Below are positions 30,243 to 46,696 of a stretch of 64,000 nucleotides of DNA, piece after piece. The translations under genes and the position numbers were made by a program. The DNA comes from Candidatus Tayloriibacteriota bacterium (GTDB lineage: Bacteria; Patescibacteriota; Minisyncoccia; Phycocordibacterales; PALSA-1337), in the NCBI GenBank assembly GCA_031384385.1, contig JANNAN010000013.1, forward strand, positions 6,015 through 70,014, in the 5' to 3' direction. Within the stretch, counting starts at the first letter, position 1, and each line of letters begins with the position of its first letter. Under the pieces are notes generated by a model that did not search any database, was not told the origin of the DNA, and worked only from the letters and a program-made list of their open reading frames with translations.

Positions 30243-30248
30243 AAAACA

Positions 30249-32509: not shown

Positions 32510-33343
32510 TTGCCATTCGATTTCAAAGAGATTTTGAAAGCTAAGCAGTATGAATATTCAGCAGACAAAATGTTGTTACCCGAGGAAAAAGCTAAACTTC
32601 AGGGATACATAACTCAATACATGACAAATGGCGGCTTTCCAGAAGTTGTCACAAAAGATGTTGAACCTCGTGGCTATCTTGATGTACTCTTTGATGCAGT
32701 GCTTTTCAAAGATGTCATAAAGCGTCACAAGGTCCGCTTCTCAAAACAGATAGACAATCTTGGATCGTATTTGATAAATAATGTTTCAAGTCAGTACACT
32801 GCTAGAAAACTTGCTAGCGTTCTCACATTCAAGAGTGACGTTACTGTGGCAAAATACCTTGATTATTTGATTGAGGCATACCTAGTTTTCTCCTTGGATC
32901 GTCATTCGACCAAAGCTACTATGAGATTACAGCTGCCAAAGAAAACCTATGTGGTAGATAACGGCCTCGTTACTGCCAAGGCGGTTCAGCATTCTCCTAA
33001 TAGTGGTAAGCTAATGGAGAATCTCGTATTTATGGAACTTGTAAAAAGAGGACATCAGCCAAACCGTGAATTGTTCTACTACAGGACTCGTAACGATCGA
33101 GAGATAGATTTTGTACTTAAAAAAGGGCATGAGGTGGTCGAACTGCTACAGGTTTCCTATGATTCTACTAGCCAGGATGTTGAGGAGAGAGAAGTAAAGG
33201 CACTAGTTGAGGCAGCTGAGGAATTGAAAGTCACGAAGCTCACTGTACTCACTTGGAATGAAAAGAGGGAAATGAAGAAGGACGGAATGACGATACAGTT
33301 TATTCCACTTTGGGAATGGCTAACAAATAATTCTAACGAGTAA
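32510..33343 (+). pseudogene. C-terminal fragment of an AAA-ATPase with DUF4143-like domain (5' part removed at IS boundary)
   Basis: Frame is open back to the IS right end (..SKELATHLTGRHIPIEILPFDF..) with no ATG. Downstream sequence (ELFYYRTRNDREIDFVL, GHEVVELLQVSY) resembles the DUF4143 C-terminal module of AAA ATPases. The AAA domain itself is absent. Confidence 0.45.
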
Positions 33344-33347
33344 AATT

Positions 33348-33878
33348 ATGGTAGGGATTATTTTTGAAGCACATGGCACGACATTTGATAACGAAGCACA
33401 CCTTGCCTCTGGTCACTTTGATGTCGAACTTTCTCCTCTCGGTATTAAACAGTCTCAAGAAATGGGAGAAAGGTACAAAGATGAGCACTTTGAGATAATT
33501 TTCTGCTCGGATTTGCAAAGATCATATAAAAGTGCGGAGATTGCATTCGGCAATAGGTTTCCGATTGTGAAAGATGCACGATTGCGAGAATGCGACTATG
33601 GTGATTATACTCAACAACCTAGCGAAATAGTTGATCGACAAAAACCACAGAGAATTCATGAACCCTTTCCTAAAGGAGAAAGCTATGAGCAAACTACAGA
33701 AAGGATGAAGGCATTTCTCGAGGATCTTAGGAAGAAATGTGAAAACAGGAGAGTTATGATTATAGGTCATAGAGCCACTCAGTACGCACTCGAAAATCTT
33801 ATAAAGGGTGTTCCACTCGAAGAAATTATTCCTGCACCATGGAAATGGCAGCCGGGATGGAAGTATGAGTTGGAGTAA
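33348..33878 (+). CDS. histidine-phosphatase superfamily (phosphoglycerate-mutase-like) protein, noncanonical AHG instead of RHG
   Basis: IIFEAHGTTFDN..ELSPLG..IIFCSDLQRS..IIGHRATQYAL matches branch-1 histidine phosphatase layout. The Arg of the RHG motif is Ala. Confidence 0.55.
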   Translation: MVGIIFEAHGTTFDNEAHLASGHFDVELSPLGIKQSQEMGERYKDEHFEIIFCSDLQRSYKSAEIAFGNRFPIVKDARLRECDYGDYTQQPSEIVDRQKPQRIHEPFPKGESYEQTTERMKAFLEDLRKKCENRRVMIIGHRATQYALENLIKGVPLEEIIPAPWKWQPGWKYELE

Positions 33879-33888
33879 GTATTAAAAT

Positions 33889-34278
33889 ATGGAAAAGAAA
33901 TTCAAACATTTAGAATTTATCCAGTCAGTCATTAATAGAATGACAAACAATTCTTTTTTACTGAAAGGTTGGTGTTTGAGTATAATTGGAGCAATTTTTG
34001 CACTTAGAGGTGGAAATTCCTCAACCAGCATACTTCCACTCTTTGTAATTATGTTTTGGCTTCTAGATAGTTATTATCTTTCTCAGGAGAGACTATTTAT
34101 TGCTTTATATAACGACGTCGTTCCTAGATCAGAGGATAAAATCGATTTCTTAATGCATACAAAAAAGTTTTGTAGAGGAAGAAACACATGGTGGAGATCA
34201 TTTTTTTCTCATACCCCTGTGATTTTCTACGGATTTATTTTGATCGTAATCATATTTATTAATTCTAATTCTATATAG
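33889..34278 (+). CDS. small 3-TM membrane protein (candidate membrane effector partner of the downstream TIR protein)
   Basis: 129 aa. Amphipathic N-terminal helix then three hydrophobic helices. 10 bp after the phosphatase gene and 4 bp before the TIR-like gene. Confidence 0.5.
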   Translation: MEKKFKHLEFIQSVINRMTNNSFLLKGWCLSIIGAIFALRGGNSSTSILPLFVIMFWLLDSYYLSQERLFIALYNDVVPRSEDKIDFLMHTKKFCRGRNTWWRSFFSHTPVIFYGFILIVIIFINSNSI

Positions 34279-34282
34279 ATTT

Positions 34283-34768
34283 ATGGCAAGAAAAGTATTT
34301 TTTAGTTTTCATCATCAGGGCGACATATTGAGGGTAGGGCAGATTCGTAATAGCTGGCTTCTTAGAGATGAGCGCGAGGATCTGGGCTTCGTAGATGCGG
34401 CAGCATGGGAATCAATTAAAAGAAATGGTGATGAGGCTATAAAGCGATGGATCGATACTCAATTAAGTGGAACATCTGTTACGGTTGTGTTGATTGGACA
34501 AGAAACTGCTAGTAGACCGTGGGTCATTCATGAGATCATTGAGAGTCATAATAAAGGAAATGGGCTTTTGGGTATAAGAATACATAATGTTAAAGATTTG
34601 CACGGTCGCTACTCACTCCAAGGATCTAACCCGTTCGATCAAGTAAGTATCACTTCTACAGGTAAATCCTTGTCTCAAATTTACCCTGTCTATGACTGGG
34701 TAACAAACAATGGACGTGAAAATATGCCTATTTGGATAGAAGAAGCTGCACGAAAAGCGAGCAGATAA
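34283..34768 (+). CDS. TIR-like domain protein of the DUF1863 / Thoeris ThsB-like family
   Basis: MARKVFFSFHHQGDILRVGQIRNSWL..FVDAAAWESIKRNGDEAIKRWIDTQLSGTSVTVVLIGQETASRPWVIHEIIESHNKGNGLLGIRIHN..SNPFD follows the conserved ThsB/DUF1863 signature (KxVFFSFH, W..D..L..VL.G.T..WV..EI..G...GI.I). Confidence 0.65.
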   Translation: MARKVFFSFHHQGDILRVGQIRNSWLLRDEREDLGFVDAAAWESIKRNGDEAIKRWIDTQLSGTSVTVVLIGQETASRPWVIHEIIESHNKGNGLLGIRIHNVKDLHGRYSLQGSNPFDQVSITSTGKSLSQIYPVYDWVTNNGRENMPIWIEEAARKASR

Positions 34769-35317
34769 TTATTGTTGATTTAATGATTCAGCTATAGGTA
34801 CAAACCTCCACTTCTGGTTTTGATAGGATTTTATCCCATCCTTATTTACAAAATCGAGCATTGTTTCGAGCTCGTGAACACTAAAGGGATATTTAAAACC
34901 TTGCTTATCGAAGCAAGTATATTTGTCATTCCAACCCTTCTCAATAATAAATGAATGTGCCATCTCACCAGTTTCCGCATCAAGAATTTGACCGACATAG
35001 AATTTCCCAGGCTCACAGTTCATGGCTGCAAGCGAGTATAAGGATTTGATATCCCCAACAAGAGTAAATGGTGCACCTGAAGTGTCCCGTACCTTTTCGC
35101 CAAAAGTAAAATCAAGTCCAGCATCCTTTTGTGCTTGTGAATCCGAAATCATTTCTTCCCATGAGATGCGTCTGATCACATATAGAACAAATTTATGACA
35201 ATTAACATTTTTTATCTTATCATTCGAAACAGGAGGGATAGTATTCCAGTTGCCCGCATCATCTTTTGTTAGAAATTTATCTTTCATATTGATTATAATA
35301 TTACCACATTGACACAC
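34769..35317 (-). CDS. hypothetical protein, possibly papain-like Cys/His peptidase (start likely at internal MKDKF)
   Basis: Convergent with TIR gene (stop codons abut). Candidate Cys (AMNCEPG) and His (AHSFII) in papain-like order. Weak. Confidence 0.3.
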   Translation of the reverse strand: MCQCGNIIINMKDKFLTKDDAGNWNTIPPVSNDKIKNVNCHKFVLYVIRRISWEEMISDSQAQKDAGLDFTFGEKVRDTSGAPFTLVGDIKSLYSLAAMNCEPGKFYVGQILDAETGEMAHSFIIEKGWNDKYTCFDKQGFKYPFSVHELETMLDFVNKDGIKSYQNQKWRFVPIAESLNQQ

Positions 35318-35386
35318 TTGAGTAGAAATTAATCAAACAAAAAAGCGTTGGTCAGACGCTTTGAAATTTTATGACCTGAGGAACTG

Positions 35387-35986
35387 CTATTTAGATTCCT
35401 CGTGAAGCTCGTCCATCTTTTTGTGGATTTCCTGAGCTTCCTTCAGGGTGATGACAAACGGATCGTCACTTTTCTCCGGCAATTCCAACTCGGAGATACC
35501 CGCACCGAGAAAACAATACTCATTTTCTTTCTGATCATAAGTCTCCCCAGGATCTAGTATCGTTCTCCCATGCCTCTTGATCGGTGTGCGCGTAGTCTGT
35601 CCACGCAGACTCCCCATCTTTTCCACCACCTCAAGTCGCAACTTCTCGATCTTACCTCGCACTTGTGCGACCCTCATCTTTTCGACCGTTTCCGCTGTGG
35701 GTATGTCGGTTTCCTTTTCGGGAAACAAACGGGGATCTACCGACCGAAGGATGGAGAGCAGATCGGTGAGGGATCGGTAGGTGACATACTCGTCAGTACC
35801 GAACTCTCCCGACTTCTTATTGGCTGTGGGATCGACTTTCACAGTGACTGCGTAGTCATCGTGAGAAGGGTCAAACCTTGACTCCTGAACCGTGACCCAG
35901 CGAGGATTTGTGATTTTCCTTACTGCATCATGGAAGTTGCCGATTGCACCGCTTGGGACACCTGCGATTTTCAATGTGATAACCAT
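35387..35986 (-). CDS. hypothetical protein
   Basis: 199 aa, GC-rich island composition, no motif. Confidence 0.4.
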   Translation of the reverse strand: MVITLKIAGVPSGAIGNFHDAVRKITNPRWVTVQESRFDPSHDDYAVTVKVDPTANKKSGEFGTDEYVTYRSLTDLLSILRSVDPRLFPEKETDIPTAETVEKMRVAQVRGKIEKLRLEVVEKMGSLRGQTTRTPIKRHGRTILDPGETYDQKENEYCFLGAGISELELPEKSDDPFVITLKEAQEIHKKMDELHEESK

Positions 35987-36045
35987 ACAAACCTACCTTT
36001 CTTTTTTGCATACGCACCGCGTATCGCAAATACTTACACCGTAAG

Positions 36046-36118
36046 TTCCGATTTCGTCCTCGTTCTCTACCACAAGGCAGAGGGACTCATCAGCGAGAAT
36101 AACATTCTCGGATCGAAA
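36046..36118 (-). ncRNA. hammerhead ribozyme (type III topology) HHR-1
   Basis: Minus-strand RNA: UUUCG-AUC|CGAGAAU..AUUCUCG-CUGAUGA-GUCCC..(extended stem II)..GAGGAC-GAAA-UCGGAA. CUGAUGA and GAAA cores, AUC cleavage triplet, three closing stems. Confidence 0.75.
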
Positions 36119-36124
36119 AGGTTT

Positions 36125-36574
36125 TTAGAGAACCTTTGAAACTCTTGATACCGCTACTATGCCAACGAATACGCACCAAATGGCAAGAAAGACGAAACAG
36201 AGTAGCACGACCGTTTTGCTTCTTCCATCGCCATATGCACAGTACAAGTCTGATCTTAGACCAGCTTCTTCATACATATAGAAGAATGAGCAGAAGATTA
36301 TCCACAGAAATGCAAATGATGCTGTCGTTGATACCATACCGTTGGTGATAAGCACGATCGTTCCAATGGGTATGAACCAAGAGGACCAGCTAATGACACC
36401 ATCGTACGGCAGAAGGTGATAGAGCATCCAAGCAGTTGCGCCTCGCCTTGGGTCCCACAGTACATTGCTGTACTTGCGGGAGTACTGATACAAACACCAC
36501 CATGTAACTGACAGTGTCCAAAGCAGAATAATAATCGTAATTTTCACAAAGAACTCCTTTCTCAAAGAATCCAC
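36125..36574 (-). CDS. hypothetical 4-TM membrane protein
   Basis: 149 aa with four hydrophobic helices. Confidence 0.45.
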   Translation of the reverse strand: MDSLRKEFFVKITIIILLWTLSVTWWCLYQYSRKYSNVLWDPRRGATAWMLYHLLPYDGVISWSSWFIPIGTIVLITNGMVSTTASFAFLWIIFCSFFYMYEEAGLRSDLYCAYGDGRSKTVVLLCFVFLAIWCVFVGIVAVSRVSKVL

Positions 36575-36637
36575 GACTTCATGTCATGAACTCTATAAAG
36601 TGGACATTTGAGGAAAATGTCCGAACCCCCGATTTGC

Positions 36638-37495
36638 CTAACTGTTGACAGCCTCGAGGAGCTTGTTCCAGTCTTTCGCGCCGGAAGGCGTGGAGCAATG
36701 ATTGGTGCATACCACCTTGACGTCACCCTTGGCAAAGCCGCGGAGACCATCGAAGGCGAATACGAACGGATCATCGTGATGGTTGCCGGCAGTGATAATG
36801 CCGATCTTCTTCACACCTTTTTGAATGGCGTGGAGCGCGATGATGGGTCCGTAAGGCATGACACCCTGACAGTTAACCATTGCCTGACCTCTCGGTCCCA
36901 TGCAAGCATAACCACCCTTGGGAATCATGCAGTCGGTGAGGACTACTTCCGGCTGTCGTTCAAGTGCGTCGAGCGCCTGATCGAATCCAGAAACGATTGT
37001 GAGATCGTATACTCCAAGAAGCTCCTTCGCCGAGGCGATATTTGCCGGATCATCTTCCACTACGAGAATGCGAGTCTTACCCGCAGTTCCGATGGCTTGA
37101 ACGATCACGTCATCCCTCCAATCATTGAAGGGTATCACGCCGGTCTTGTGAACGGCAACTTCACGGACACCTTCCATGAGTTGAGCGAAGATTTTCGCCT
37201 TGCTCGACTTTTGCAGTCTTCGAGCAATTGAAGCCGAGGCTTCATGAGGATCGATGGTCTTGTACCAGTCGTTTCCCTCTGGATGCGTCCAAGCGTCGAG
37301 GAGAATGACGTCGGCGTCAACAGCTTCCTTGATGAAAGCCTCAGCGTGATCTCCATGGAGATATCCGCCGAAGCCGACATAGGTGAGCTTCTGACCAGTC
37401 TTCTCTTCGAGATCCCGATGAACGACACCGCCTGGTCCATACAAAGGATCATTGGTGCCGTGATTTGCCATGCAATGAAGCAGAATCTTTTTCAT
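36638..37495 (-). CDS. hypothetical protein with central CheY-like receiver (REC) domain
   Basis: ILVVEDDPANIASAKELLGVYDLTIVSGFDQALDALERQPEVVLTDCMIP fits the REC consensus including acidic pocket and D-phosphorylation position. Flanking N- and C-regions unrecognised. Confidence 0.5.
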   Translation of the reverse strand: MKKILLHCMANHGTNDPLYGPGGVVHRDLEEKTGQKLTYVGFGGYLHGDHAEAFIKEAVDADVILLDAWTHPEGNDWYKTIDPHEASASIARRLQKSSKAKIFAQLMEGVREVAVHKTGVIPFNDWRDDVIVQAIGTAGKTRILVVEDDPANIASAKELLGVYDLTIVSGFDQALDALERQPEVVLTDCMIPKGGYACMGPRGQAMVNCQGVMPYGPIIALHAIQKGVKKIGIITAGNHHDDPFVFAFDGLRGFAKGDVKVVCTNHCSTPSGAKDWNKLLEAVNS

Positions 37496-37524
37496 TCGTT
37501 TCTCTTTCGTTGTTGATTGTTATG

Positions 37525-37603
37525 TAAAGAACTGAACTCTCAGGGTTCGCGACATCAGTCGTAAACCCAGTTGAGTCCCTGTAACCATTGCTAGTCACAG
37601 GGG
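37525..37603 (-). ncRNA. family-1 structured element E1 (two-hairpin motif, unknown class)
   Basis: Minus-strand: hairpin2-ACUCAACUG-GGUUUACGAC-UGAU-GUCGCGAACCC-UGAGAGUUCAGUUCUUUAC. Shares linear motifs and covarying 11-bp hairpin with six other copies. Confidence 0.55.
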
Positions 37604-37623
37604 TTGAGTGAGATTTCAGGTAC

Positions 37624-37983
37624 TCACTTCATAAACTCGAAATGGATCTCAGTGATCCAGTCGAAATCGAATTTAACCTCGCGTACAGTCAAACCCATTT
37701 TTGCCGCCTCCTGTTGGAGGATTTCTTCGGCATGTTTAAGTTTCTCAGCCTTGCCATTTCCTCGCAAGTACGCCGGAAAGACGATCTTTCCAGAGGTATT
37801 GAGGAAGCGTTCACACTCAGGTTTCTCGGCGAAAATGAGAAACTGATGATTCCAACCGAAGTACGCATACAGGTTGGTTGTGAGTGACGGCTGTGCTGGT
37901 CTCGGACGTTTGTCGAGCATCCTGTGGCACCTTTCGGTAACTTGCAACAGGTCATGATCTTGAAGTGCGCTTGCGTCTACCAT
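37624..37983 (-). CDS. hypothetical protein (start at MVDASALQD)
   Basis: ATG 37983 with AGGAG 6 nt upstream. The track ORF start at 38049 lies inside element E2. Confidence 0.4.
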   Translation of the reverse strand: MVDASALQDHDLLQVTERCHRMLDKRPRPAQPSLTTNLYAYFGWNHQFLIFAEKPECERFLNTSGKIVFPAYLRGNGKAEKLKHAEEILQQEAAKMGLTVREVKFDFDWITEIHFEFMK

Positions 37984-38013
37984 AGTTTTTATCTCCTGGT
38001 TTGATTGTTGATG

Positions 38014-38092
38014 TAAAGAACTACTGAACTCTATAGATTCACAACACATTCGTTATGAATCTAATAAAGTCGGGGAGGTTTTTGAAGTCTCC
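38014..38092 (-). ncRNA. family-1 structured element E2
   Basis: Minus-strand 11-bp perfect hairpin AGAUUCAUAAC-GAAUGU-GUUGUGAAUCU flanked by ACUUUAUUA and AGAGUUCAGUAGUUCUUUAC. Second hairpin GGAG..CUCC. Confidence 0.55.
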
Positions 38093-38148
38093 TCGATTTT
38101 GAAAGTTTTAGACTTGCGTCACCGTTACTTCACGGAGTGGGTTGACCA

Positions 38149-38361
38149 CTATTTTGTTTCGGTCTTCTCCACAATCACCATTGCGACATGATAGGTATGC
38201 ATTGCGCATGGCATCTGGAGTGGCTCCCGCATCTCACCCCAAGGGGCGATTGCGTAGGACGACGAAACAACCTTCCAGCCCGGCCCAAGTTTCTCAAGTT
38301 CTTCATTGAGTTCGGGCTCAGGTGTTGCATTCATCGTTTTAACGATAATGGTTTTCAACAT
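38149..38361 (-). CDS. hypothetical 70-aa protein
   Basis: Start MLKTIIVK chosen downstream of element E3. The track ORF begins inside E3. Confidence 0.3.
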   Translation of the reverse strand: MLKTIIVKTMNATPEPELNEELEKLGPGWKVVSSSYAIAPWGEMREPLQMPCAMHTYHVAMVIVEKTETK

Positions 38362-38424
38362 AAGAATAGTCTTTCTGTACTGGTGTATTGTTTCGGCACA
38401 CCTACTTGAAGCCGTTTTATATTC

Positions 38425-38504
38425 CAAAGAACTGAACTCTGAGAGCTCACAACGGATTTGTTGCGAACTCAGTAAAGTGCTCATTTTAGGTGAATGAGCA
38501 AAAC
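38425..38504 (-). ncRNA. family-1 structured element E3
   Basis: GGUUUUGCUCAUUCACCUAAAAUGAGC-ACUUUACUG-AGUUCGCAAC-AAAUCC-GUUGUGAGCUC-UCAGAGUUCAGUUCUUUG. Compensatory changes relative to E7 (G-C to A-U). Confidence 0.55.
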
Positions 38505-38517
38505 CGAATCGAGCAAA

Positions 38518-38925
38518 CTACTGAACCTTTCTCCAGCACAGAGCCGGATGTTCGCTCGGGCCACCACCGTGGTCGAGGTGATAGAAACATAGACCATCAT
38601 TCTGGTTGGCCAAGCCGAGGCTCTTCATTCGCCTGGCGTGCCTGCCGAGGTAGTATCCGATCCTATCGTTCATGTTTTCACGACAGTCATACAAAGTGAT
38701 CCATCCTTTGTACTTTCGGAACTCCTTGTGTTTGAAGATGCTCACATCCCGGATCTGCGCGGGGATGTGACCGGCAGCGTCGGATGCTTCCTTGGCATCA
38801 CGATGCGTTGACCGATCTAGGCCAGCCTTCGCTTTGAACTCTACGAGATAGTATTCCATACCATCGTGAGTGAAAAGCGTAGGTTGCGGAATTGCGGTGA
38901 ACTTCAGACTTTGCGTCGCATTCAT
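38518..38925 (-). CDS. hypothetical protein
   Basis: 135-aa ORF, no motif. Confidence 0.4.
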   Translation of the reverse strand: MNATQSLKFTAIPQPTLFTHDGMEYYLVEFKAKAGLDRSTHRDAKEASDAAGHIPAQIRDVSIFKHKEFRKYKGWITLYDCRENMNDRIGYYLGRHARRMKSLGLANQNDGLCFYHLDHGGGPSEHPALCWRKVQ

Positions 38926-38980
38926 TATTTCGTTTCTTTCTTGGTTGAGTTTGTTTGTGATTACTAAATTTGAAAGAGCT

Positions 38981-39029
38981 TTCTGTTTCGTCCTTCTGGA
39001 CTCATCAGTCGGAATACATTCCGAGACAG
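38981..39029 (-). ncRNA. hammerhead ribozyme HHR-2
   Basis: Minus-strand: CUG-UC|UCGGAA-UGUA-UUCCGA-CUGAUGA-GUCC-AGAA-GGAC-GAAAC-AGA. Minimal ~49-nt hammerhead with GUC triplet. Confidence 0.8.
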
Positions 39030-39099
39030 TCGGTCAGTAAAAATTTACCGACCATTCACACAATTTTTAGGTAGTGTGCGTACCTCTATGTGGTAGAAC

Positions 39100-39390
39100 T
39101 TATTTTCCTTTTGATTCGACCAGGGAAACGTAATTTTGAATCCCTTGTTTAACCAATTCTTCAATAAGTACCACCAACGGGCATGGATGATACTTTTCAG
39201 TATCCAATGCCATTGTTGCTTCCACAAACGCAACTGCGTCTGTGAATTTGTAACCTTCATCAGTTGGGACAATGAAGATCGTTTCTCTAACTTCCTCTCC
39301 AGCGATACTGGAGCCGTCATCAAACTCTCCTCGAGTTGGGCGGAAGCACAAGCTCACCCGACCTTCCTCGTTCACACGCAATCCCATCAT
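39100..39390 (-). CDS. hypothetical 96-aa protein flanked by two hammerhead ribozymes
   Basis: Start MMGLRV at 39390 just downstream of HHR-3. The track start 39456 lies inside the ribozyme. Confidence 0.4.
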   Translation of the reverse strand: MMGLRVNEEGRVSLCFRPTRGEFDDGSSIAGEEVRETIFIVPTDEGYKFTDAVAFVEATMALDTEKYHPCPLVVLIEELVKQGIQNYVSLVESKGK

Positions 39391-39416
39391 ATATATAAAG
39401 AGCAGTCGTTGTTGTG

Positions 39417-39497
39417 TTCTGTTTCGTCCTTCACCTTGGCTTCGTCTGAAGCACAAGGGGACTCATCAGTACAGATTATATCTGTAGACAGAAGGGG
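39417..39497 (-). ncRNA. hammerhead ribozyme HHR-3 (extended stem II)
   Basis: Minus-strand: CCCCUUCUG-UC|UACAGAU-AUA-AUCUGUA-CUGAUGA-GUCC-(long imperfect stem II CCUUGUGCUUC..GAAGCCAAGG)-GGAC-GAAAC-AGAA. Confidence 0.75.
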
Positions 39498-39576
39498 CTA
39501 GATTTAAATCTTGCCCCATTTTATGACAATTCTTGAGCAGGTAGTCATCATACCTTCTAGCACTGCATGCCAGCCT

Positions 39577-39641
39577 CACCATTTCAAACGGTGACATTCA
39601 CACTCTTCTGTAACAAAGGTTAGAGTGATCCTTTGGTAGTC
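39577..39641 (-). ncRNA. family-3 conserved element (copy a), downstream of stop codon
   Basis: ~65-bp block CACCAUUUCAAACGGUGACAUUCACACUCUU..AAGGUUAGAGUGAUCCUU..GUAGUC, ~85% identical to 41206-41275. Contains CACACUCU/AGAGUGAU inverted repeat. Confidence 0.45.
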
Positions 39642-39651
39642 TTTCCTACAG

Positions 39652-40017
39652 TCAGATGCCGCAGAGCGAACGTATCTTGCAAATTTCCCTCAATGTCTGT
39701 TGACGTCCCGGAAGTCCATTCTCAACCCATCCTCCAAATTGCTTCAGAGTGGTGAGAATTTCTTCCCGAGTGCCAGGTTCCCCGATACAAATGGGGATGA
39801 ACTGACGTTTGTCTTCAGACTTAGCGAGGAACTTGCAAGCGATCGGTATTGAGGATTTCACCTGAACCACGGGGATGGTGTTGTCATTGGTAGTGACATC
39901 CAATCCGTGATCATTGAAACCTCCGATTACCTGTACGCCAAATACTTTGGCGTACGCTTTCTCTAGCTCGGCACCGACGAATTCCTTCGTCACTCCCATG
40001 GTTTTCATAGAGTTCAT
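39652..40017 (-). CDS. hypothetical protein
   Basis: 121-aa ORF, no motif. Confidence 0.4.
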   Translation of the reverse strand: MNSMKTMGVTKEFVGAELEKAYAKVFGVQVIGGFNDHGLDVTTNDNTIPVVQVKSSIPIACKFLAKSEDKRQFIPICIGEPGTREEILTTLKQFGGWVENGLPGRQQTLREICKIRSLCGI

Positions 40018-40064
40018 AATATTATGAGATGTGGTACCGAGTTAGGCACCGTTGTTGTTTACTG

Positions 40065-40328
40065 TTATCCGTAGGTGACCGATGACTGTCGCAGAGATCG
40101 AATGAGAACAGGGAAGATGAGTAACGGATGCTTAAGCATGAATTTTGCTTTTTCTTTGCCTTGAAGGTGTCGAGCTGCGATGAGAAGAACAACTTCTCGG
40201 CTCATCGCTTCTTGACCCTCCACCTTGCATTCCGTAAATATCTTCTGAGCCTTTTCGTCTCCTTGGTGTCGCCTGACGCGATCCAGAATATCAGTAAGTA
40301 ACATTTGGTATTTCGTGTTGTTTTTCAC
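40065..40328 (-). CDS. hypothetical protein
   Basis: 87-aa ORF, helical, no motif. Confidence 0.35.
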   Translation of the reverse strand: MKNNTKYQMLLTDILDRVRRHQGDEKAQKIFTECKVEGQEAMSREVVLLIAARHLQGKEKAKFMLKHPLLIFPVLIRSLRQSSVTYG

Positions 40329-40494
40329 AAAGAGCTTTCCTCAATGAATCCACCAGGTCCAGCACACGCTGGCTGACGGACTCAATAAAGGACTTTTTTC
40401 AATACTTCTACGATGTTACTATTATAGCATAGTATATACTACTTGTCCAGTGTATTGTTAAATATAATGAACAGGGAAGTATGGCTTATTTTAA

Positions 40495-40546
40495 GGCTGC
40501 TTTCGTCGTTTTCGACTCATCAGTCTGGACAATATCCAGAGAGCAG
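40495..40546 (-). ncRNA. hammerhead ribozyme HHR-4
   Basis: Minus-strand: CUGC-UC|UCUGGA-UAUUG-UCCAGA-CUGAUGA-GUCG-AAAA-CGAC-GAAA-GCAG. Stem II GUCG/CGAC is a compensatory variant of GUCC/GGAC. Triplet CUC. Confidence 0.75.
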
Positions 40547-40596
40547 AGGTTGATTCCGTACAATCAACCTGATTAATGTGAATGCGGTTCGGCGCA

Positions 40597-40914
40597 TTAT
40601 TGACCCTTCAGAAAGGCCATCGCTTCGATCAATCCCATCCCGTGTGCCATTTTGCCATCGGGAAATGAATTGAAGATCTTGAAGCGATCAGATTCAGGAA
40701 TGGTGGCGGCTTTCTGTTTCCACCACAGAACCTGTGCAACGCGCTTGGATGTATTGTCCAAATACACCTGCACTTTTTCTGGTTCATCGGTCATGATGCC
40801 GTCGGCTTCCTGAACCGTCTTCACAAACTCCAAACCCCCGATAGTTGTGAAGATCTGAACGATTGCCTTATGGACAGGACTGTCCGGCGTCGCAAGATCC
40901 AGAAATATTTTCAT
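40597..40914 (-). CDS. hypothetical protein
   Basis: 105-aa ORF, overlaps upstream small gene by ATGA. Confidence 0.4.
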   Translation of the reverse strand: MKIFLDLATPDSPVHKAIVQIFTTIGGLEFVKTVQEADGIMTDEPEKVQVYLDNTSKRVAQVLWWKQKAATIPESDRFKIFNSFPDGKMAHGMGLIEAMAFLKGQ

Positions 40915-41051
40915 ACCTCTTTCCTCCAGTTTTGTTTTTGTTTGTTGCGGTTGTATCCACGGACACCTTTCGGAGTTCCGTAGGGTTTACCGATGAAAAG
41001 AGTTTGCTTGCGCACACTCTTCATCGCCTTCAACTGAATTGTATTGTTCAT
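40911..41051 (-). CDS. 46-aa basic protein (upstream partner in a two-gene cassette)
   Basis: MNNTIQLKAMKSVRKQTLFIGKPYGTPKGVRGYNRNKQKQNWRKEV. Track ORF extends further 5' into ribozyme-flanking sequence. Confidence 0.3.
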   Translation of the reverse strand: MNNTIQLKAMKSVRKQTLFIGKPYGTPKGVRGYNRNKQKQNWRKEV

Positions 41052-41118
41052 AGTAATCTGCCACTGATGATCGCGTGAGTGGCAAGTTGCTATGAACAAT
41101 ATTTTATTTAAAGAACTT

Positions 41119-41172
41119 TTCTGTTTCGTCCTTTCGGACTCATCAGTCGAGACTCGCATCTCGAGACAGAAC
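41119..41172 (-). ncRNA. hammerhead ribozyme HHR-5 (near-consensus)
   Basis: Minus-strand: UUCUG-UC|UCGAGAU-GCGA-GUCUCGA-CUGAUGA-GUCC-GAAA-GGAC-GAAAC-AGAA. GNRA loops on stems I and II, GUC triplet. Confidence 0.85.
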
Positions 41173-41205
41173 GAATCCTTTGATCCGTAGCGCTGCACGC
41201 CAACT

Positions 41206-41275
41206 CACCATATAGATACGGTGACATTCACACTCTTTTGAATAGAAGGTTAGAGTGATCCTTCTTTTTGTAGTC
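41206..41275 (-). ncRNA. family-3 conserved element (copy b)
   Basis: See 39577-39641. Lies between stop of 41289-41705 and HHR-5. Confidence 0.45.
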
Positions 41276-41288
41276 AGACAAGCTGACA

Positions 41289-41705
41289 TCATAACCAAGA
41301 CAGTTGTTCCCTTATATCCGGATTTCGCTGATCGAATACCGGATTTAAAGAGATTTCCTGTTTGGCTAGACTAGTGAAACCATCTACGCCGTCAACAACC
41401 TTTCCTTTGGAATCATGTCTGATACTCAGCTCAGTTCCTCCGGTAAAATTATTGGCTGCGAATTGTTTCAAGAAGGCTTGCACCTCCTCTCGCAATTTGG
41501 TCTCAGCAAAAGGTTCCTTATCTACACTCACAATCTCGTACGTATCTTCGGCGTATGAATTTTTTTCATCGCCACTCTGATCGTACCAGCTGTATGAGTG
41601 CTTCAGGTAAACCCTTCGGCCAGCAAGTTCAATGACAAATAGAGATTCACCTCCACCGCCATTACTTGCCCCCTCGTCATGACTACGAATAACGAACGCT
41701 TTCAT
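41289..41705 (-). CDS. hypothetical protein
   Basis: 138-aa ORF, Gly-rich N-terminal segment, no motif. Confidence 0.4.
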   Translation of the reverse strand: MKAFVIRSHDEGASNGGGGESLFVIELAGRRVYLKHSYSWYDQSGDEKNSYAEDTYEIVSVDKEPFAETKLREEVQAFLKQFAANNFTGGTELSIRHDSKGKVVDGVDGFTSLAKQEISLNPVFDQRNPDIREQLSWL

Positions 41706-41792
41706 ATCTCACCTCCTTTCGTTTTGTTGAGTGTTTATTCAATGAGGTGGAGGATTAGGGATAGAACCCAATCCTCCCAACGACACCCGAAC

Positions 41793-42065
41793 CTAATCAG
41801 GGTCGATCAATATGTGGGCGATCGCGAATGGCCCACCCCAGTCTTCACCGGGATTCACCATTCCATGATCGTGCGTGCACATCAAGGTGGTGGATTTCGG
41901 TGTCGGATAAAACTTTGCAGGATTATCCGTGAGAATCCAGTCTGCTCCTTCTGGAGACGAGACGAACTCCCAACCGTCGGAACGCAGCATTGTCTTGCTG
42001 CCTGTGATCTTTTCGATCAACTCCTCTTTTCCGACCGCGACTTCGATATACATTTTTCGGGGCAT
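41793..42065 (-). CDS. hypothetical protein
   Basis: 90-aa ORF immediately downstream of element E4. Confidence 0.4.
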   Translation of the reverse strand: MPRKMYIEVAVGKEELIEKITGSKTMLRSDGWEFVSSPEGADWILTDNPAKFYPTPKSTTLMCTHDHGMVNPGEDWGGPFAIAHILIDPD

Positions 42066-42088
42066 AAATTCTACTTGTTGATTGTTTG

Positions 42089-42169
42089 AAAAGAACTGAA
42101 ATTCTATGAATCTGCGACTTCAGTCGTAGACTCAATAAAGTGCAGATTTTGATGGAATCTGCTAAAACC
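42089..42169 (-). ncRNA. family-1 structured element E4
   Basis: GGUUUUA-GCAGAUUCCAUCAAAAUCUGC-ACUUUAUUG-AGUCUACGAC-UGAA-GUCGCAGAUU-CAUAGAAUUUCAGUUCUUUU. Confidence 0.55.
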
Positions 42170-42852
42170 TGACCTCTAGCAATAGTGATCCACACGGATC
42201 GTATTGAAAGAGTAATCCCACCGACTCCCCGAGTACCTCTGATATCTCCACTTTCGTGAAAGTGTCAGTAGGCGACTGCGCTCTCGCTTGGAGAGCCGAC
42301 GACCTGTGTCGTCTGCGAACTTCAGTGTTCGCGATCTCCTTCTGTGGGAGATATCGAGTACACCATCGGTGGTGCTCGATTTTACAGGCTTAAAGCCAGG
42401 AAACTGCACCGTTGCACTACCGTATGATGTACTCATATTTTTATTTCGGTTGGTTGTTTTTGAAATATTCGCAGTTCGGAATCACCATGAATGTTCCTTG
42501 ACCAGGTACACACTCACAACTATCCGATGATGTATAAGAGATGGGGTTGTTATCCCGCATGAGGTTATGCCTCTAATCTCCCGTACACCTTGTTCTTTCC
42601 AGGGATGCATGCCCACGTAACGAACGTGGATTGGTCGAGCATTCCCTTTCGACAACAACCTTTCGGTTGAGGTGAAAGAACTAGAGCCCTACAAAATTCT
42701 GCCAATCTACTGAAAACCCTTGCAAGTTTTCTAAGTAATCGGAGCTAGAACAGTGTAGACCCCACACAATGGCTTCTGCGTAGCCTGTGCATATAACTGT
42801 CCTTAATAATTAATTCAGACCAATTATATGCACAAGCATTTCAAAATTTATT

Positions 42853-42931
42853 TAAAGAACTAAACTCTTTGGGCCAGCAACATTGTTGTAAGCCCAATAA
42901 AGTGCAGATTTTGATGGAATCTGCGAAAACC
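42853..42931 (-). ncRNA. family-1 structured element E5
   Basis: Same hairpin-2 sequence as E4 (GCAGAUUCCAUCAAAAUCUGC). Hairpin 1 GGGCUUACAAC-AAUG-UUGCUGGCCC. Not followed by an ORF for >400 nt. Confidence 0.5.
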
Positions 42932-43005
42932 ATTTGCTTTTCGGGGTTGATTATTGTCCGATAGCAGTGCGACTCTTTTTTGTTAGGAAAAGAGCTAGAG
43001 AAACC

Positions 43006-43395
43006 TTAGTAATCAAGAGGGTGGCATCTGTGCCCGACGCTCTCGCCCCATTTGTTTCTTTCAATCGGAGATTCGAGACCTCCAGACCGATAGAGACATT
43101 TGGTACGCGAGACCGCCAAGGCTTTGATGACATCGTCTCCGATCGTCCCTCGACGCACGAACTGCTTGCGCAAGCGGCGATATTCACGCGGGTTCTTGAT
43201 CAAGCCTAAGCTCTCACAAGTATCCCCGTAGTGACTACCCCGATTGTCGACAGCAATTGTGTGCCTGAAGAACAACCGTCGACCCTCGACCTTGAACGAG
43301 ATGACCCTGTAAGGGATCAGGCTCGCCCAATGGTGGTCCCTCGTGAACCTCTCCGTATGGATTTTGATTTCCATGGTTTGATTCGTTTTCATAGT
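43006..43395 (-). CDS. hypothetical protein
   Basis: Start taken at MKTNQTMEIK inside track ORF 43006-43416. Basic, no motif. Confidence 0.35.
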   Translation of the reverse strand, partial: TMKTNQTMEIKIHTERFTRDHHWASLIPYRVISFKVEGRRLFFRHTIAVDNRGSHYGDTCESLGLIKNPREYRRLRKQFVRRGTIGDDVIKALAVSRTKCLYRSGGLESPIERNKWGESVGHRCHPLDY

Positions 43396-43631
43396 TTCTC
43401 TATTTTTAATGTGCAAATTGGGCTGGCACCAGGGCTAGACTTCTTCAAGTGGCTAACTTGATAAAGCTTTCGCCGTGATGCCAGGAGAGTTTTTTGCGGG
43501 CTCTCAAACCGCCACATAGTACGACCGGCCAAGGTCTTCCTTGCTATATCTCCGTCTTTCAGGAGCTTCCAAGTGACCCTTAGAGCCCTTGGCTGATTTT
43601 CAGCAAATCTCATGCTCGCTACTTCTCGCAC
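43389..43631 (-). CDS. hypothetical protein
   Basis: 80-aa ORF, weak. Confidence 0.25.
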   Translation of the reverse strand: MREVASMRFAENQPRALRVTWKLLKDGDIARKTLAGRTMWRFESPQKTLLASRRKLYQVSHLKKSSPGASPICTLKIEKL

Positions 43632-43804
43632 TTTCGTGCAGTAGCTTCACACAAGTTCTCTGGTCGCGTGCCAGAGGGGATAGTACCGCCAACCCGGATG
43701 GGTCCGTATAGCATCTCCCTTCGGCCAAACACCATGTGAGTGTTCTGCCCTATGGGTATTCGAATTTCGAGTACCCATTTCGACAGAACACAATTTCAAG
43801 AAAC

Positions 43805-43859
43805 TTCTGTTTTCGTCTTTCAAGACTCATCAGTCGGAATACATATTCCGAGAACAGAG
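43805..43859 (-). ncRNA. hammerhead ribozyme HHR-6 (1-nt insertion at cleavage triplet)
   Basis: Minus-strand: CUCUG-UUC|UCGGAAU-AUGU-AUUCCGA-CUGAUGA-GUCU-UGAA-AGAC-GAAAAC-AGAAG. Stem II GUCU/AGAC compensatory variant. Extra U and extra A suggest a slightly degenerate copy. Confidence 0.65.
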
Positions 43860-43931
43860 AGACGATTTGCATCATCCCAGTAGTTTCCGCTCACCAAGCG
43901 CCCTGGAGCTACCCCAGAGAATTACGGGAGT

Positions 43932-44294
43932 TTAATGACTTCCATGGTCAGTCGAAGCGAGAACACTACGGTGTACCCACTGCACGGCTCCAAAGCCGGT
44001 GTCGTAGGATCTCTCGTAGTACACTGTTGCGTTTACATGCACAGGCTGGCCGTTGGTGAAGCCAGTCTCACCGGGAAAAAATCCCTTTTTGCCTTTGATT
44101 TTTCCTTCGAGAAAACGGACTTCGATTCCGTTCGCGCTCACCTTGGAAACAATTCCGGTGGCACTCGCTTCCTCACTCCATTTTTGTGGAGTAGCCAACT
44201 TTTTTGGTAAAGTGGCATAGAAACCGAAACCGATCAGGGCAAAGCCCAGAACAACCAAGAGAACCGCTAATGTCTTCTTCATAGAACTCTCCAT
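43932..44294 (-). CDS. hypothetical secreted/membrane-anchored protein
   Basis: Signal peptide/TM MKKTLAVLLVVLGFALIGFGFYA. Confidence 0.45.
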   Translation of the reverse strand: MESSMKKTLAVLLVVLGFALIGFGFYATLPKKLATPQKWSEEASATGIVSKVSANGIEVRFLEGKIKGKKGFFPGETGFTNGQPVHVNATVYYERSYDTGFGAVQWVHRSVLASTDHGSH

Positions 44295-44301
44295 TTTAAT
44301 T

Positions 44302-44380
44302 TAAAGAACTGAAATCTATGAATCTACGACTTCAGTCGCAGACTCAATAAATTGATCATTTGAGGATTAATGATCAAACC
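44302..44380 (-). ncRNA. family-1 structured element E6
   Basis: Fills the whole intergenic space. Hairpin 2 UUGAUCAUU..AAUGAUCAA (different sequence, same fold). Hairpin 1 AGUCUGCGAC-UGAA-GUCGUAGAUU. Confidence 0.55.
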
Positions 44381-44381
44381 G

Positions 44382-44636
44382 TTACCCCATTTTGCACCGC
44401 AGGATTTTGCGGCAACCTCTTGCGAGAAGGTCACTCAGCCATGCTGCCCAGAGCGAACGTCGCCAGAAGCGCCGAAGCAGAAGGTATATAACCAGCGCCT
44501 CGATCACCAACGCTACCACAAGACACACGAGTGTCAGACAGTAGACGAAGGTTTCCGGAAATATTTGCCCCAGAGTAGCCTGCGTAAGTTTGTAGAGCAT
44601 TTCCATGCTCTGTCGCATTATTTCATTGAGTTGCAT
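44382..44636 (-). CDS. hypothetical small membrane protein
   Basis: 84 aa with one long hydrophobic helix. Confidence 0.4.
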   Translation of the reverse strand: MQLNEIMRQSMEMLYKLTQATLGQIFPETFVYCLTLVCLVVALVIEALVIYLLLRRFWRRSLWAAWLSDLLARGCRKILRCKMG

Positions 44637-44700
44637 AGTGAGCGAAGCTCAATTCTTGAGCGTCATTCACTACACAACTCTAATGTAAAGAACCGCAGAA

Positions 44701-44775
44701 GTATCTGCACTATGCCGCGCCTCCGTTTTTTTAATATAATTATATAGTTTATGAGGCGCGAGATAGTGCAGACAC
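44701..44775. repeat. large imperfect palindrome (23-bp arms, AT-rich 29-bp centre)
   Basis: GTATCTGCACTATGCCGCGCCTC ... GAGGCGCGAGATAGTGCAGACAC. Confidence 0.5.
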
Positions 44776-44783
44776 ATTTTTAT

Positions 44784-44862
44784 TAAAGAACTGAACTCAA
44801 TGGATTCACAACATCAGTTGCGAACCCAATAAAGTGCTGATTTTGAGAAAATCAGCGAAAAC
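44784..44862 (-). ncRNA. family-1 structured element E7 (most upstream copy)
   Basis: GGUUUUCGCUGAUUUUCUCAAAAUCAGC-ACUUUAUUG-GGUUCGCAAC-UGAU-GUUGUGAAUCC-AUUGAGUUCAGUUCUUUAAU. Confidence 0.55.
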
Positions 44863-45540
44863 TGCGCGCGATGCCTCATCCTAAGATCACCGTTAGGTGA
44901 TAGCCAGTTATTCAGCAAAGCTGTTACTGGTGATGAAAGCTGGTGGAGGCTCAATGGCCACAACCATCACATTTTTATTTAAGGCTGTGTACACCCACTC
45001 CAATTTGTCCTTGGAGTATTCATGATTATTTTTTCGTACCCTCATGACTGGACGGAGTGGACTAGCAGGTAGCTGTTGCTACGACTTGATGTGTCAAATT
45101 CCCGAAGGAACCAAGACTTCCATCATCTGCTATCCACCCATATTTTTTAGGTACTATGGGGTCGCGACACTCCCTGTACCATATTTAAATCCAAATTATT
45201 TTGATTCAAATACGGTACAAGGAGAAAAACTTATTTCAAGTGAACTGTTTACATGTCAATCGTTCTGGGGTGTAGTATAGCAGATACAATAATTTTGTCA
45301 AGTATAATTAACACTTTATACCTAAATACAGCAAATATAGCCCTATAAATATGGATATTTAAGCTATATAAGAGTTATCAAGAAGTGACATATTATAAAT
45401 AATTTTGACAAAGTCAAAATGTAATTTGAAATAAAATATTTCTGTTAAACAATAAAAACATGATAAAAAGGCATAAAATGAATGTTTTCTTGTATCTATG
45501 GCTTAAAATATGGGGTTTATTATGAAAATGACAATAAAAC

Positions 45541-45568
45541 TTGACAAATACAATACATTTGCTATTAT
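45541..45568 (+). promoter_or_regulatory. near-consensus sigma70-type promoter (TTGACA-16 nt-TATTAT) reading rightwards
   Basis: TTGACA at 45541-45546, TATTAT at 45563-45568. Confidence 0.45.
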
Positions 45569-45669
45569 AGTCATGGAAGTGAGTGGTGAGCAGTACATGC
45601 TCTTAAAAGAGTGCCATTCACAATCCCATTAACAAGGAGGACACAATGAGCGACTAGAATGTCGGTAAG

Positions 45670-45710
45670 TACCGTCTTCTAGTGGACCTCATTGGCACTA
45701 GAAGACGGTA
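45670..45710 (+). other. perfect 15-bp inverted repeat hairpin (no U-tract) downstream of promoter and mini-ORF
   Basis: TACCGTCTTCTAGTG-11 nt-CACTAGAAGACGGTA, preceded by AAGGAGG-ATGAGCGACTAG (M-S-D-stop). Confidence 0.45.
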
Positions 45711-45937
45711 TTGAAACCGTTCAAGTCGGATCCTCCGAGTAGTATGGGAAATTGAAAAGAAAGGAAGGTAGGTATGTGTGATTAGCTCAAAAACCGCAGT
45801 GTGTGTTGTCGTGACCGAAAATTCGGAAAAGATCAACATGAAGAAAACTCCATCGGCGAATATTGATCACATTAGCGCTCTGTCAAACAGCGCCTGAAGG
45901 TCTCGATCAAAAGCTAGTTCCCAGGCTCCAATCGTCT

Positions 45938-46696
45938 TTACGGTTGGAGCCTCTTCTTTTTCTCATCAAAGCCAACATTGAAGATACTTCTGAATGTTTC
46001 TGCGAATTCCTTACTTCTTATAAAAATACCAGAAAGTTTTTTGCCAAGAATTGCAATTTTAACACGGTCTTCACAGATTGATATATCACATAATATTGGA
46101 TACTTATCTGCATCTACCTTCACCCTCTCACCGTCTTCACTTGTAGGGACTTCTCCATTTTTGTAAGTATACATTACTTTAGATTTGATGTTTTTACCTA
46201 GGCGCATACCTCGATATCTATCTCGCTCTTGTTTCGAAAATATTTCATCAACTAGATCCTTTGAGTATATTAAATAGCTGATGGCGTTTTCATTTTGTCC
46301 AAGAAAAAACTCTTCATGTAGACTTACCAATCCATCTCGACCTTCAAAATATTTTACGATAGGTTTTTCACCACCCTCTCTCTGAACACTCTTTATTTGA
46401 GGAATGACATCCTTTAATTTCTTTGACTGTTCATCAAGCATTATTTTTCGCTGCTCAACATATGTCTCTAATCTTTCTGGCGGCTCAGCTTGGTAATGAG
46501 TTTTCTTGCCAACTGTGGTTTCGGTCACCAGACCTTTTTTTGCAAGAGATTCCAACACGACATAGGTAGTCGATCGATTTAATTTGGTCTTTTTTGAGAG
46601 ATCAAGCACAGAGCTGTTCTCCATAGAAAGCAATGATATATAAACAATTGCCTCCTTCTCGCTCAGCCCGATGTCTTGTAGGTATTTTTCCAACAT
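45938..46696 (-). CDS. TrmB-family transcriptional regulator
   Basis: N-terminal HTH LGLSEKEAIVYISLL..SVLDLSKKTKLNRSTTYVVLESLAKKGLV typical of TrmB. AT-rich host-like composition. Confidence 0.6.
   Translation of the reverse strand: MLEKYLQDIGLSEKEAIVYISLLSMENSSVLDLSKKTKLNRSTTYVVLESLAKKGLVTETTVGKKTHYQAEPPERLETYVEQRKIMLDEQSKKLKDVIPQIKSVQREGGEKPIVKYFEGRDGLVSLHEEFFLGQNENAISYLIYSKDLVDEIFSKQERDRYRGMRLGKNIKSKVMYTYKNGEVPTSEDGERVKVDADKYPILCDISICEDRVKIAILGKKLSGIFIRSKEFAETFRSIFNVGFDEKKKRLQP

Follow-up and report, generated by a model that had tools for sequence, protein, structure and literature searches.

This report concerns a cluster of small genes in a Candidatus Tayloriibacteriota bacterium (GenBank assembly GCA_031384385.1, contig JANNAN010000013.1), in which six hammerhead ribozymes and several other structured RNAs occupy the junctions between genes. 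The window analysed is the whole stretch of 64,000 nucleotides (nt) from positions 6,015 to 70,014 of the contig; coordinates below are positions within this window, and related loci carry labels such as L122 and L134. Window GC content is about 0.31 but rises between about 27 and 50 kb. On the minus strand, a gene for a TrmB-family helix-turn-helix (HTH) regulator of 252 amino acids (aa) (45938-46696; Pfam TrmB HTH, E 1.9e-15) forms the conserved anchor upstream of an array of 17 small open reading frames (ORFs) of 46-285 aa (35387-44636), with RNA modules between them. Following the array in its own direction, the 17 gene junctions hold motif A (a second module, described below) twice, a hammerhead, motif A twice, a hairpin only, two hammerheads, then past a predicted internal promoter motif A, no module, two hammerheads, motif A four times and a final hammerhead. 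The layout had been called one ribozyme per cassette in a preliminary description; this is wrong as stated, as a hammerhead is present at six junctions and motif A at nine, with one junction holding the hairpin alone and one holding nothing.

The array ORFs, all on the minus strand, lie at 44382-44636, 43932-44294, 43006-43392, 42176-42436, 41793-42065 and 41289-41705 (ORFs 1-6), 40911-41051, 40597-40914, 40065-40328, 39652-40017, 39100-39390 and 38518-38925 (ORFs 7-12), and 38149-38361, 37624-37983, 36638-37495, 36125-36574 and 35387-35986 (ORFs 13-17). Pfam, PHROG and PDB sequence searches assigned no significant family to the array proteins, and none matched a PHROG of known function; the hints obtained were a weak receiver-domain match in the 285-aa protein and a sub-threshold YezG-like match. 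Five of the 17 proteins recur in other arrays, at 55-72% identity.

The predicted main promoter of the array (45274-45301, minus strand; TTGACA-16-TATACT with an extended TG, 11/12 match) is the best such site on its strand, and a putative intrinsic terminator, a hairpin followed by a T-run, lies at the array end (35342-35362, minus strand). A further predicted promoter (40421-40449, minus strand; TGGACA-17-TATAAT with an extended TG, 11/12 match) is found between the hammerhead at 40495-40548 and the fifth copy of motif A. In around 30 of 41 loci a TTGACW..TAYAMT site is present 0.5-0.75 kb past the TrmB stop codon, and modules follow it. We infer that the array is transcribed as a single unit because the best promoter-like sites and the terminator-like site bracket it, and because the promoter position is conserved (~30/41).

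Judged by sequence, six elements in a 7.8 kb span of the minus strand are type III hammerheads and ordinary members of the Rfam family RF00008 (Hammerhead_3), for which the curated gathering score is 48.5 bits. In the order of the array they are HHR-6 (43805-43859; 37.3 bits, E 6e-5), HHR-5 (41118-41172; 49.6 bits, above the gathering score), HHR-4 (40495-40548; 35.7 bits, E 1.7e-4), HHR-3 (39416-39494; 40.1 bits, extended stem II), HHR-2 (38980-39032; 39.9 bits, short stem III of 4 bp) and HHR-1 (36046-36118; 24.3 bits as a partial match, E 0.31, extended stem II). The cleavage triplets are UUC at 43859, GUC at 41172, 39494 and 39032, CUC at 40548 and AUC at 36118. The preliminary description had placed six type III hammerheads on this strand, and its outer coordinates match ours exactly; its triplets for HHR-1 to HHR-5 are also correct, with the UUC of the sixth copy omitted. 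The stem II variants GUCC/GGAC, GUCG/CGAC and GUCU/AGAC, and a stem I sequence that differs between copies, are as it claimed.

On reading the sequences, the core positions C3 U4 G5 A6 N7 G8 A9 and G12 A13 A14, the A15.1-U16.1 pair and C at H17 are kept in all six copies, and the positions adjoining the catalytic core are paired in all six. These core positions and this core-adjacent pairing are what hammerheads were accepted on by Perreault et al. (2011; PMC3088659). A stem-aware descriptor, which requires the core positions and all three stems, gives stems I, II and III of 7-9, at least 4 and 4-7 bp with the open end at stem III; over the window it returned six matches on the minus strand and none on the plus strand, compared with 0.14 expected per window (maximum one) in dinucleotide shuffles. 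The minimum-free-energy (MFE) fold is the canonical three-way junction in four of the six copies, namely HHR-6, HHR-5, HHR-4 (z -2.5) and HHR-3 (z -4.4), and a competing fold in HHR-2 and HHR-1.

A covariance-model search had been proposed as a check, and its outcome was mixed: just one of the six copies reaches the RF00008 gathering score and five fall below it, of which four are clear matches with E-values of 1e-5 to 2e-4 (35.7-40.1 bits), and a model built from the lineage itself finds 66 copies in related sequences. The low scores, together with the competing folds of two copies, would suit the idea that the hammerhead-like sequences are inactive relics. This is barely credible, given that all six copies have an unmutated core, that the three stems covary across 64 sequences and that chance would supply 0.14 matches per window. 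The six copies are probably functional, self-cutting ribozymes.

Relatives were retrieved with the TrmB-family regulator (45938-46696) as anchor, which gave 36 loci from Patescibacteria genomes, mostly of Paceibacteria/Parcubacteria lineages (TrmB identity 45-87%), and additional loci were found through homologues of the 285-aa array protein. The lineage covariance model was seeded with 37 compact hammerheads, including four of the six window copies, with HHR-3 and HHR-1 outside the seed. It found 66 hammerheads in 633 kb across 41 related sequences, every one on the TrmB/array strand. The window copies score 44-73 bits with this model (four of the six being in its seed); HHR-6, itself in the seed, scores 69.6 bits, while HHR-3 and HHR-1, from outside it, score 52.0 bits (E 1.5e-13) and 44.4 bits (E 4.6e-11). 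Across 64 distinct sequences all three stems covary: 97.4% of cells are paired, both sides change in 13 of 15 pairs, and the covariation score is 0.85 against 0.23 in shuffles and ~0.1 in slid controls, with counts that are somewhat inflated by model-fitted alignments and related sequences and a margin that is still large. Six copies are not exceptional in the lineage, because L134 alone has about ten hammerheads within 5 kb. In L141 (2342-2510) two hammerheads are separated by just 41 nt.

Stem III is near-uniform in these relatives, with CUGU/ACAG in 37-63 of the 64 sequences per position. Type III is also the hammerhead topology of viroids and retrozymes. Both points could be taken to mean that two like-oriented type III copies release the gene-length RNA between them, and that its ends find each other again through the common stem III (CUGUC/ACAG) and are ligated, giving circular or shuffled RNAs. 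With stem III so uniform, the 3' end of such a unit could base-pair to the ribozyme body that forms its 5' end. We consider this very unlikely. Most junctions hold motif A, so most genes are not between two ribozymes, and the array contains no ligase or reverse transcriptase gene. Spliced or circular products have also been sought for clustered bacterial hammerheads, and none were found (PMC3088659).

The modules lie between genes. Over all arrays, consecutive modules have a median spacing of 478 nt, and an ORF of at least 40 aa lies between 92% of them; hammerheads and motif A are freely intermixed, with 27 hammerhead-hammerhead, 22 motif A-hammerhead, 20 hammerhead-motif A and 16 motif A-motif A neighbour pairs. 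The earlier statement that every copy sits just after a stop codon is loose, as the gaps run from 6 to 157 nt and often contain other structured elements. A perfect hairpin ends where stem III begins in all six window copies (that at 43859-43878 abuts stem III of HHR-6) and in 72% of 65 copies, compared with 20% of controls. On the other side, a conserved RNUCUUU box begins 0-3 nt past 42 of 65 hammerheads by regular expression, or about 80% if a first base clipped by the model is counted, against a background of 3%. Pairing of the box with the Shine-Dalgarno sequence was considered as its function, and the complementarity was inconsistent on inspection. The short form AG.TCTTT is by itself too weak for mapping arrays in AT-rich genomes.

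Hammerheads are not the only ribozyme-like elements in these slots. L122 has two twister-P1 matches, of 37 and 59 bits (4701-4811 and 5303-5381), both under the Rfam gathering score of 67.2, which sit at the junctions of a related array in place of the hammerheads seen in the window, and the RNUCUUU box follows both of these sub-threshold matches. Copies of the hammerhead, motif A and motif B (a pseudoknotted RNA, see below) were also seen upstream of TrmB or on the opposite strand, in L157 (2840-4599), L130 (855-910) and L131 (12470-12560, minus strand), so the arrays are not strictly confined to the region downstream of TrmB.

The most frequent module in the window is motif A. It begins with P1, a hairpin whose sequence varies; P2, an 18-bp hairpin with one bulged U and the lower helix ACUUUAU/AUAGAGU, abuts it, and the RNUCUUU box follows. 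Its nine copies, all on the minus strand, were scored with model R2: copy 1 at 44781-44856 (76.1 bits, P1 of 9 bp), copy 2 at 44299-44375 (71.2 bits, 7 bp), copy 3 at 42850-42924 (62.4 bits, 7 bp), copy 4 at 42086-42162 (63.0 bits, P1 hairpin present), copy 5 at 40325-40391 (51.7 bits; without P1, directly past the predicted internal promoter), copy 6 at 38422-38499 (60.8 bits, 7 bp), copy 7 at 38011-38094 (63.0 bits; P1 imperfect in RNAfold), copy 8 at 37522-37602 (64.2 bits, 11 bp) and copy 9 at 36544-36622 (50.1 bits, 8 bp). A covariance model of P2 and the box finds 57 matches; 55 lie on the array strand, and about 30 were not part of the seed. P2 has 89% of its cells paired and compensatory changes in 15 of its 18 pairs, with frequent G-U pairs, and its covariation score of 0.60 compares with 0.29 when the sequences are shuffled and no more than 0.17 when partners are slid. 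A P1 hairpin occurs in 92% of copies, against a hairpin at 11% of random positions. Motif A is therefore a real RNA structure.

P1 abuts P2 without a linker, and the geometry of P2 (18 bp and one bulge) is compatible with an RNase III substrate of about two turns of double-stranded RNA. There is also a positional match to the hammerhead, as the lower helix corresponds to stem III and the bulged U to the cleavage nucleotide, with a plain hairpin in place of stem I, the core and stem II. Motifs A and B, and a long hairpin termed motif C, had no Rfam match even in the most permissive search, which returned just generic hairpin/miRNA matches far below threshold. Motifs A and B, searched as 106-nt and 181-nt stretches with permissive filters, gave no match at E<=10 to twister, twister-sister, pistol, hatchet or HDV-like (hepatitis delta virus-like) ribozymes. 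Motif A as a variant of pistol, hatchet or twister was rejected, there being no family-model match, and it was rejected as a sigma-70 promoter on its spacing of about 23 nt between the -35-like and -10-like parts. An exact-pattern scan of viral contigs for motif A gave at least 120 single matches, which is about chance for 18 specified bases, and was disregarded.

Other observations could point to DNA rather than RNA, with the hammerhead and motif A modules serving as recombination sites of an integron-like cassette array and their RNA folds being incidental. Gene content is highly variable between arrays (just 5/17 proteins are common), some module copies are identical (L128 736 and 1270), and a tyrosine recombinase is encoded 2 kb from TrmB. 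This is nevertheless highly improbable. Catalysis by RNA is well established for hammerhead and twister, and motif A keeps to one strand (55/57), with many G-U pairs that would turn into A-C mismatches on the other. No R''/R' GTTRRRY core sites were found on sequence reading, and the nearby recombinase is ordinary rather than IntI-type. As an attC site, motif A was likewise rejected: its consensus contains no RYYYAAC/GTTRRRY sites, and the motif itself is strand-specific, with G-U pairs in abundance.

Partial termination is an alternative for motif A, because three P1 hairpins score as terminator-like. On this alternative the modules would be decay or attenuation valves, in which hammerhead cleavage, or partial termination at P1 and the tract ACUUUAUU of motif A, grades expression under the control of TrmB. 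The predicted internal promoter at 40421-40449 would then offset lost downstream transcription, and the glmS ribozyme is a precedent for cleavage that can trigger decay (PMC6765202). We regard such valves as unlikely, since the tract after P1 is a poor U-run (just 5/8 U) and is paired into the covarying P2 lower helix, and since the ends that cleavage would create seem stabilised rather than destabilised, with hairpins set exactly at the 3' ends and a conserved leader box at the 5' ends.

Three further families, G, K and M, precede the same box (GUUCUUU) in related loci, each with an upstream variable hairpin, downstream of TrmB on the plus strand (L132, L136, L138, L142, L148, L151, L155, L158 and L159). 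Family G reads UCCCAUCAAAG..UUUGAUGGGAG-AAAUCCCAAA, family K reads AUCUUUUCAG..UGAAAAGA plus CCGCAUGAUU..AAUCGUGCGG, and family M reads CAUUUUUGAGCCAG..UGGCUGAAAAUAGG. They have an architecture like that of motif A with unrelated sequence, and occur in loci without hammerheads or motif A. An Rfam scan of three G/K/M-type loci (L132, L136 and L151) matched nothing, and Rfam on five TrmB loci without hammerheads gave tRNAs only.

Motif B is an RNA of about 85 nt with a predicted pseudoknot, present twice in the window on the minus strand, directly 5' of HHR-5 (41186-41273; nhmmer E 2.5e-17) and 5' of HHR-3 (39556-39643; nhmmer E 1.5e-18). The model comprises three hairpins, one with a pseudoknot-forming loop, one of UCACC/GGUGA and a small one whose UGCAG loop is invariant. 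In the 13 copies from several loci, pairing extends to 94% of cells and compensatory changes to 13 of 22 pairs (three of the four pseudoknot pairs among them), and 28 columns are invariant, these being statistics from few sequences and for a structure derived from those very sequences.

Further structured elements were seen on the minus strand. Motif C (UCUGCAC...GUGCAGAUAC; 44701-44775) lies past motif A copy 1 and is followed by a second box-like sequence, GGUUCUUUACAU; similar elements are present in L128 (~1815-1900) and L122 (~4260-4330). Motif E, a conserved 3'-untranslated region (UTR) element of about 90 nt (43860-43949), is fused to the UUC-type hammerhead and runs from a covarying hairpin through GCGCYUG..AGCGGAAA to a second hairpin; the 160-nt unit of motif E and hammerhead is 75-83% identical in L124, L130, L131 and L143. 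A conserved 5'-UTR element, GGCUUCAAGUAGGUGUGCC..ACACCAGUACAGAAAG (38371-38413), is found after motif A copy 6 and ahead of the start codon that follows, and also occurs in L128 (~6520-6570) and L124 (~7790). About 415 nt within the array (42437-42853) have no convincing ORF; a long hairpin lies in them, together with a second leader box at about 42700. Similar long non-coding stretches are found in L128 (1810-2230) and L122 (~600 nt), and these may be larger structured RNAs.

The 400-nt leader downstream of the main predicted promoter likewise has no convincing ORF. It carries motif D (GGURCAGGGAG..ACCCCA.AG.ACGUGAG; 45135-45185, minus strand), which recurs in L122, L124 and L128. Between TrmB and this promoter lies a plus-strand unit of about 370 nt (45541-45952), whose DNA sequence is conserved across many loci. 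A divergent promoter-like TTGACA-16-TATTAT and a strong terminator (45923-45952) bracket it. At its start are a strong Shine-Dalgarno sequence, a 3-codon ORF (MSD-stop) and then a 14-bp hairpin.

The surroundings of the array bear on whether it belongs to a mobile element. A mobile-looking segment on the plus strand (27500-34768) encodes an AAA_24 ATPase, phage Rep-O, ParB-N, an IS3 transposase (31370-32412), a DUF4143/Mrr-like protein, a histidine phosphatase and ThsB-TIR, a Thoeris-type defence domain (34283-34768); beyond TrmB lies the tyrosine recombinase (48891-49898), with ordinary SAM-like and catalytic domains. The array (35000-46000) has a GC content of 0.46 compared with ~0.31-0.33 in its flanks, and arrays of relatives have 0.42-0.54 regardless of flank GC, a pattern that suggests horizontal cassette exchange or a constraint of RNA structure. 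With bacterial hammerheads tied to prophages in the literature (PMC3088659), the array might be read as an early or accessory operon of a prophage or integrated plasmid, whose transcript the ribozymes process. The preliminary description had indeed placed it inside an integrated element.

That placement is unsupported, and a mobile-element operon is an improbable reading. TrmB and the promoter are conserved in about 30 of 41 loci, drawn from many Paceibacteria, with housekeeping neighbours (GAPDH, tRNAs, CCA-adding enzyme and RNase Y), and about 500 nt of the spacer from TrmB to the promoter are conserved at the DNA level. The replication/IS segment at 27.5-34.7 kb seems to have been inserted independently: in the window it separates GAPDH from the array end, whereas in L135 and an ERZ contig GAPDH directly adjoins TrmB. 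The viral contigs of IMG/VR yielded no close TrmB relative and no hammerhead-plus-box signature. The setting does not match that of a prophage, the anchor being TrmB with housekeeping neighbours and the array proteins lacking a PHROG of known function. Our preferred description of the locus is a chromosomal position that is conserved while its content is hypervariable.

Together, the layout of hairpin, cleavage element and common leader for each gene, on one strand and behind one promoter, fits co-transcriptional cutting of a polycistron, and the likelier explanation of the array is that a transcript of about 10 kb is cut into single-gene mRNAs by the hammerheads, with motif A doing likewise. 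Transcription would start at the conserved promoter at ~45.27 kb, with extra input from the internal promoter at ~40.43 kb, and end near the terminator at 35.34 kb. Each ribozyme would fold during transcription and cut itself after its NUH triplet. The upstream mRNA would be left with a terminal hairpin, presumably protective, followed by 5-8 nt and a 2',3'-cyclic phosphate, and the downstream mRNA would begin with a 5'-OH, the folded ribozyme body and the conserved RNUCUUU leader box. The outcome would be single-gene mRNAs whose ends, stability and translation are independent of their neighbours. At other junctions motif A would fill the slot, most likely cut by a double-strand-specific host nuclease such as RNase III; a generic duplex-recognising enzyme is favoured over several new catalytic folds because families G, K and M share the architecture and not the sequence. 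Cutting of a polycistron into gene-length units, as first suggested for this locus, is the most reasonable role, and it had already been proposed for clustered hammerheads (PMC3088659).

Several points weigh against this explanation. The two promoters and the terminator were called on consensus alone, and the region contains just as many promoter-like sites in total as shuffling predicts. Five of the six hammerheads score below the RF00008 gathering score (40.1, 39.9, 37.3, 35.7 and 24.3 bits), the MFE folds of 38980-39032 and 36046-36118 pair the 3' strand of stem III with the core, and the covariation counts are inflated to the degree given above. Three of the nine P1 hairpins of motif A pass a simple terminator scan, and the action of a nuclease on motif A is purely inferred. 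The biological role of clustered bacterial ribozymes is also still considered unresolved (PMC6765202).

Taken by themselves the hammerheads are ordinary members of a well-known family, and the value of the array lies in its setting and its uncharacterised modules. What differs here is a TrmB-anchored, lineage-wide array in bacteria of the candidate phyla radiation (CPR), where hammerheads share the junctions with other, interchangeable modules and two or more co-resident RNAs are absent from Rfam. A literature search for hammerheads or ribozymes together with Patescibacteria, CPR or Parcubacteria found nothing relevant. We tentatively raise the possibility that the array represents an undescribed Paceibacteria-wide system, a TrmB-linked, promoter-driven, hypervariable array of small genes with an interchangeable RNA processing module at every junction. 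On this reading, which we put forward with reserve, the modules beyond hammerhead and twister include at least one new class, motif A (nine copies here and more than 50 in relatives), and a new pseudoknotted RNA, motif B. Motif A, motif B or both could even be a new class of self-cleaving ribozyme, as the same genomic-context logic led to twister, pistol and hatchet, and both are singled out as candidates for ribozymes or processing signals.

Why bacteria put self-cleaving ribozymes between genes has been open since 2011 (PMC6765202), and the locus gives no answer. It does offer an unusually clean comparative system, with one conserved regulator and promoter, one processing module per junction, predicted 3'-end hairpins, a common predicted 5' leader box and dozens of natural swaps of a hammerhead for another RNA. 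These features make the processing hypothesis directly testable.

In comparison with RF00008, the hammerheads have the full core, three helices open at stem III, an NUH triplet and covarying stems, and no essential difference was seen. Traits of the lineage are the near-constant stem III, a conserved stem I loop (AUGUGUAU), the hairpin abutting stem III and the RNUCUUU box directly 3'. Bacterial self-cleaving ribozymes are known to cluster with one another and with certain genes (2019 review; PMC6765202). Clustered hammerheads flank single genes in prophage regions, where processing of long transcripts into gene-length mRNAs was proposed, and those flanking genes cleave in vitro and in Escherichia coli (Perreault et al., 2011; PMC3088659). 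The present layout is therefore not a new kind: several same-strand hammerheads around single genes or short blocks, with polycistron processing as the proposed role, were already seen in those clusters, and relatives carry up to about ten per array. However, the clusters of 2011 are mostly of type II and sit among phage genes, whereas those here are of type III, in a Patescibacteria host and anchored by TrmB and a conserved promoter, and alternate with a non-ribozyme structured module.

As among the known self-cleaving classes, unrelated ribozymes fill equivalent genomic slots in these arrays, with sub-threshold twister-P1 in L122 where the window has hammerheads. The extra slot-fillers (motif A, and G, K and M in relatives) match neither a known self-cleaving class nor another Rfam family, G, K and M having been scanned in the three loci named above. 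In the early mRNA of phage T7, processing hairpins for RNase III lie between genes. P2 of motif A resembles these in being an irregular, bulged intercistronic helix of about 18 bp, a cut in which would leave the upstream mRNA with a 3' hairpin, but it differs in its sequence-conserved lower helix and in the separate P1 hairpin that abuts it. RiboJ is an engineered ribozyme insulator: its hammerhead-type ribozyme is put in front of a gene, strips off the upstream RNA and gives the transcript a standard leader. Whereas RiboJ is engineered, the arrangement in the array is natural, and is repeated along an operon.

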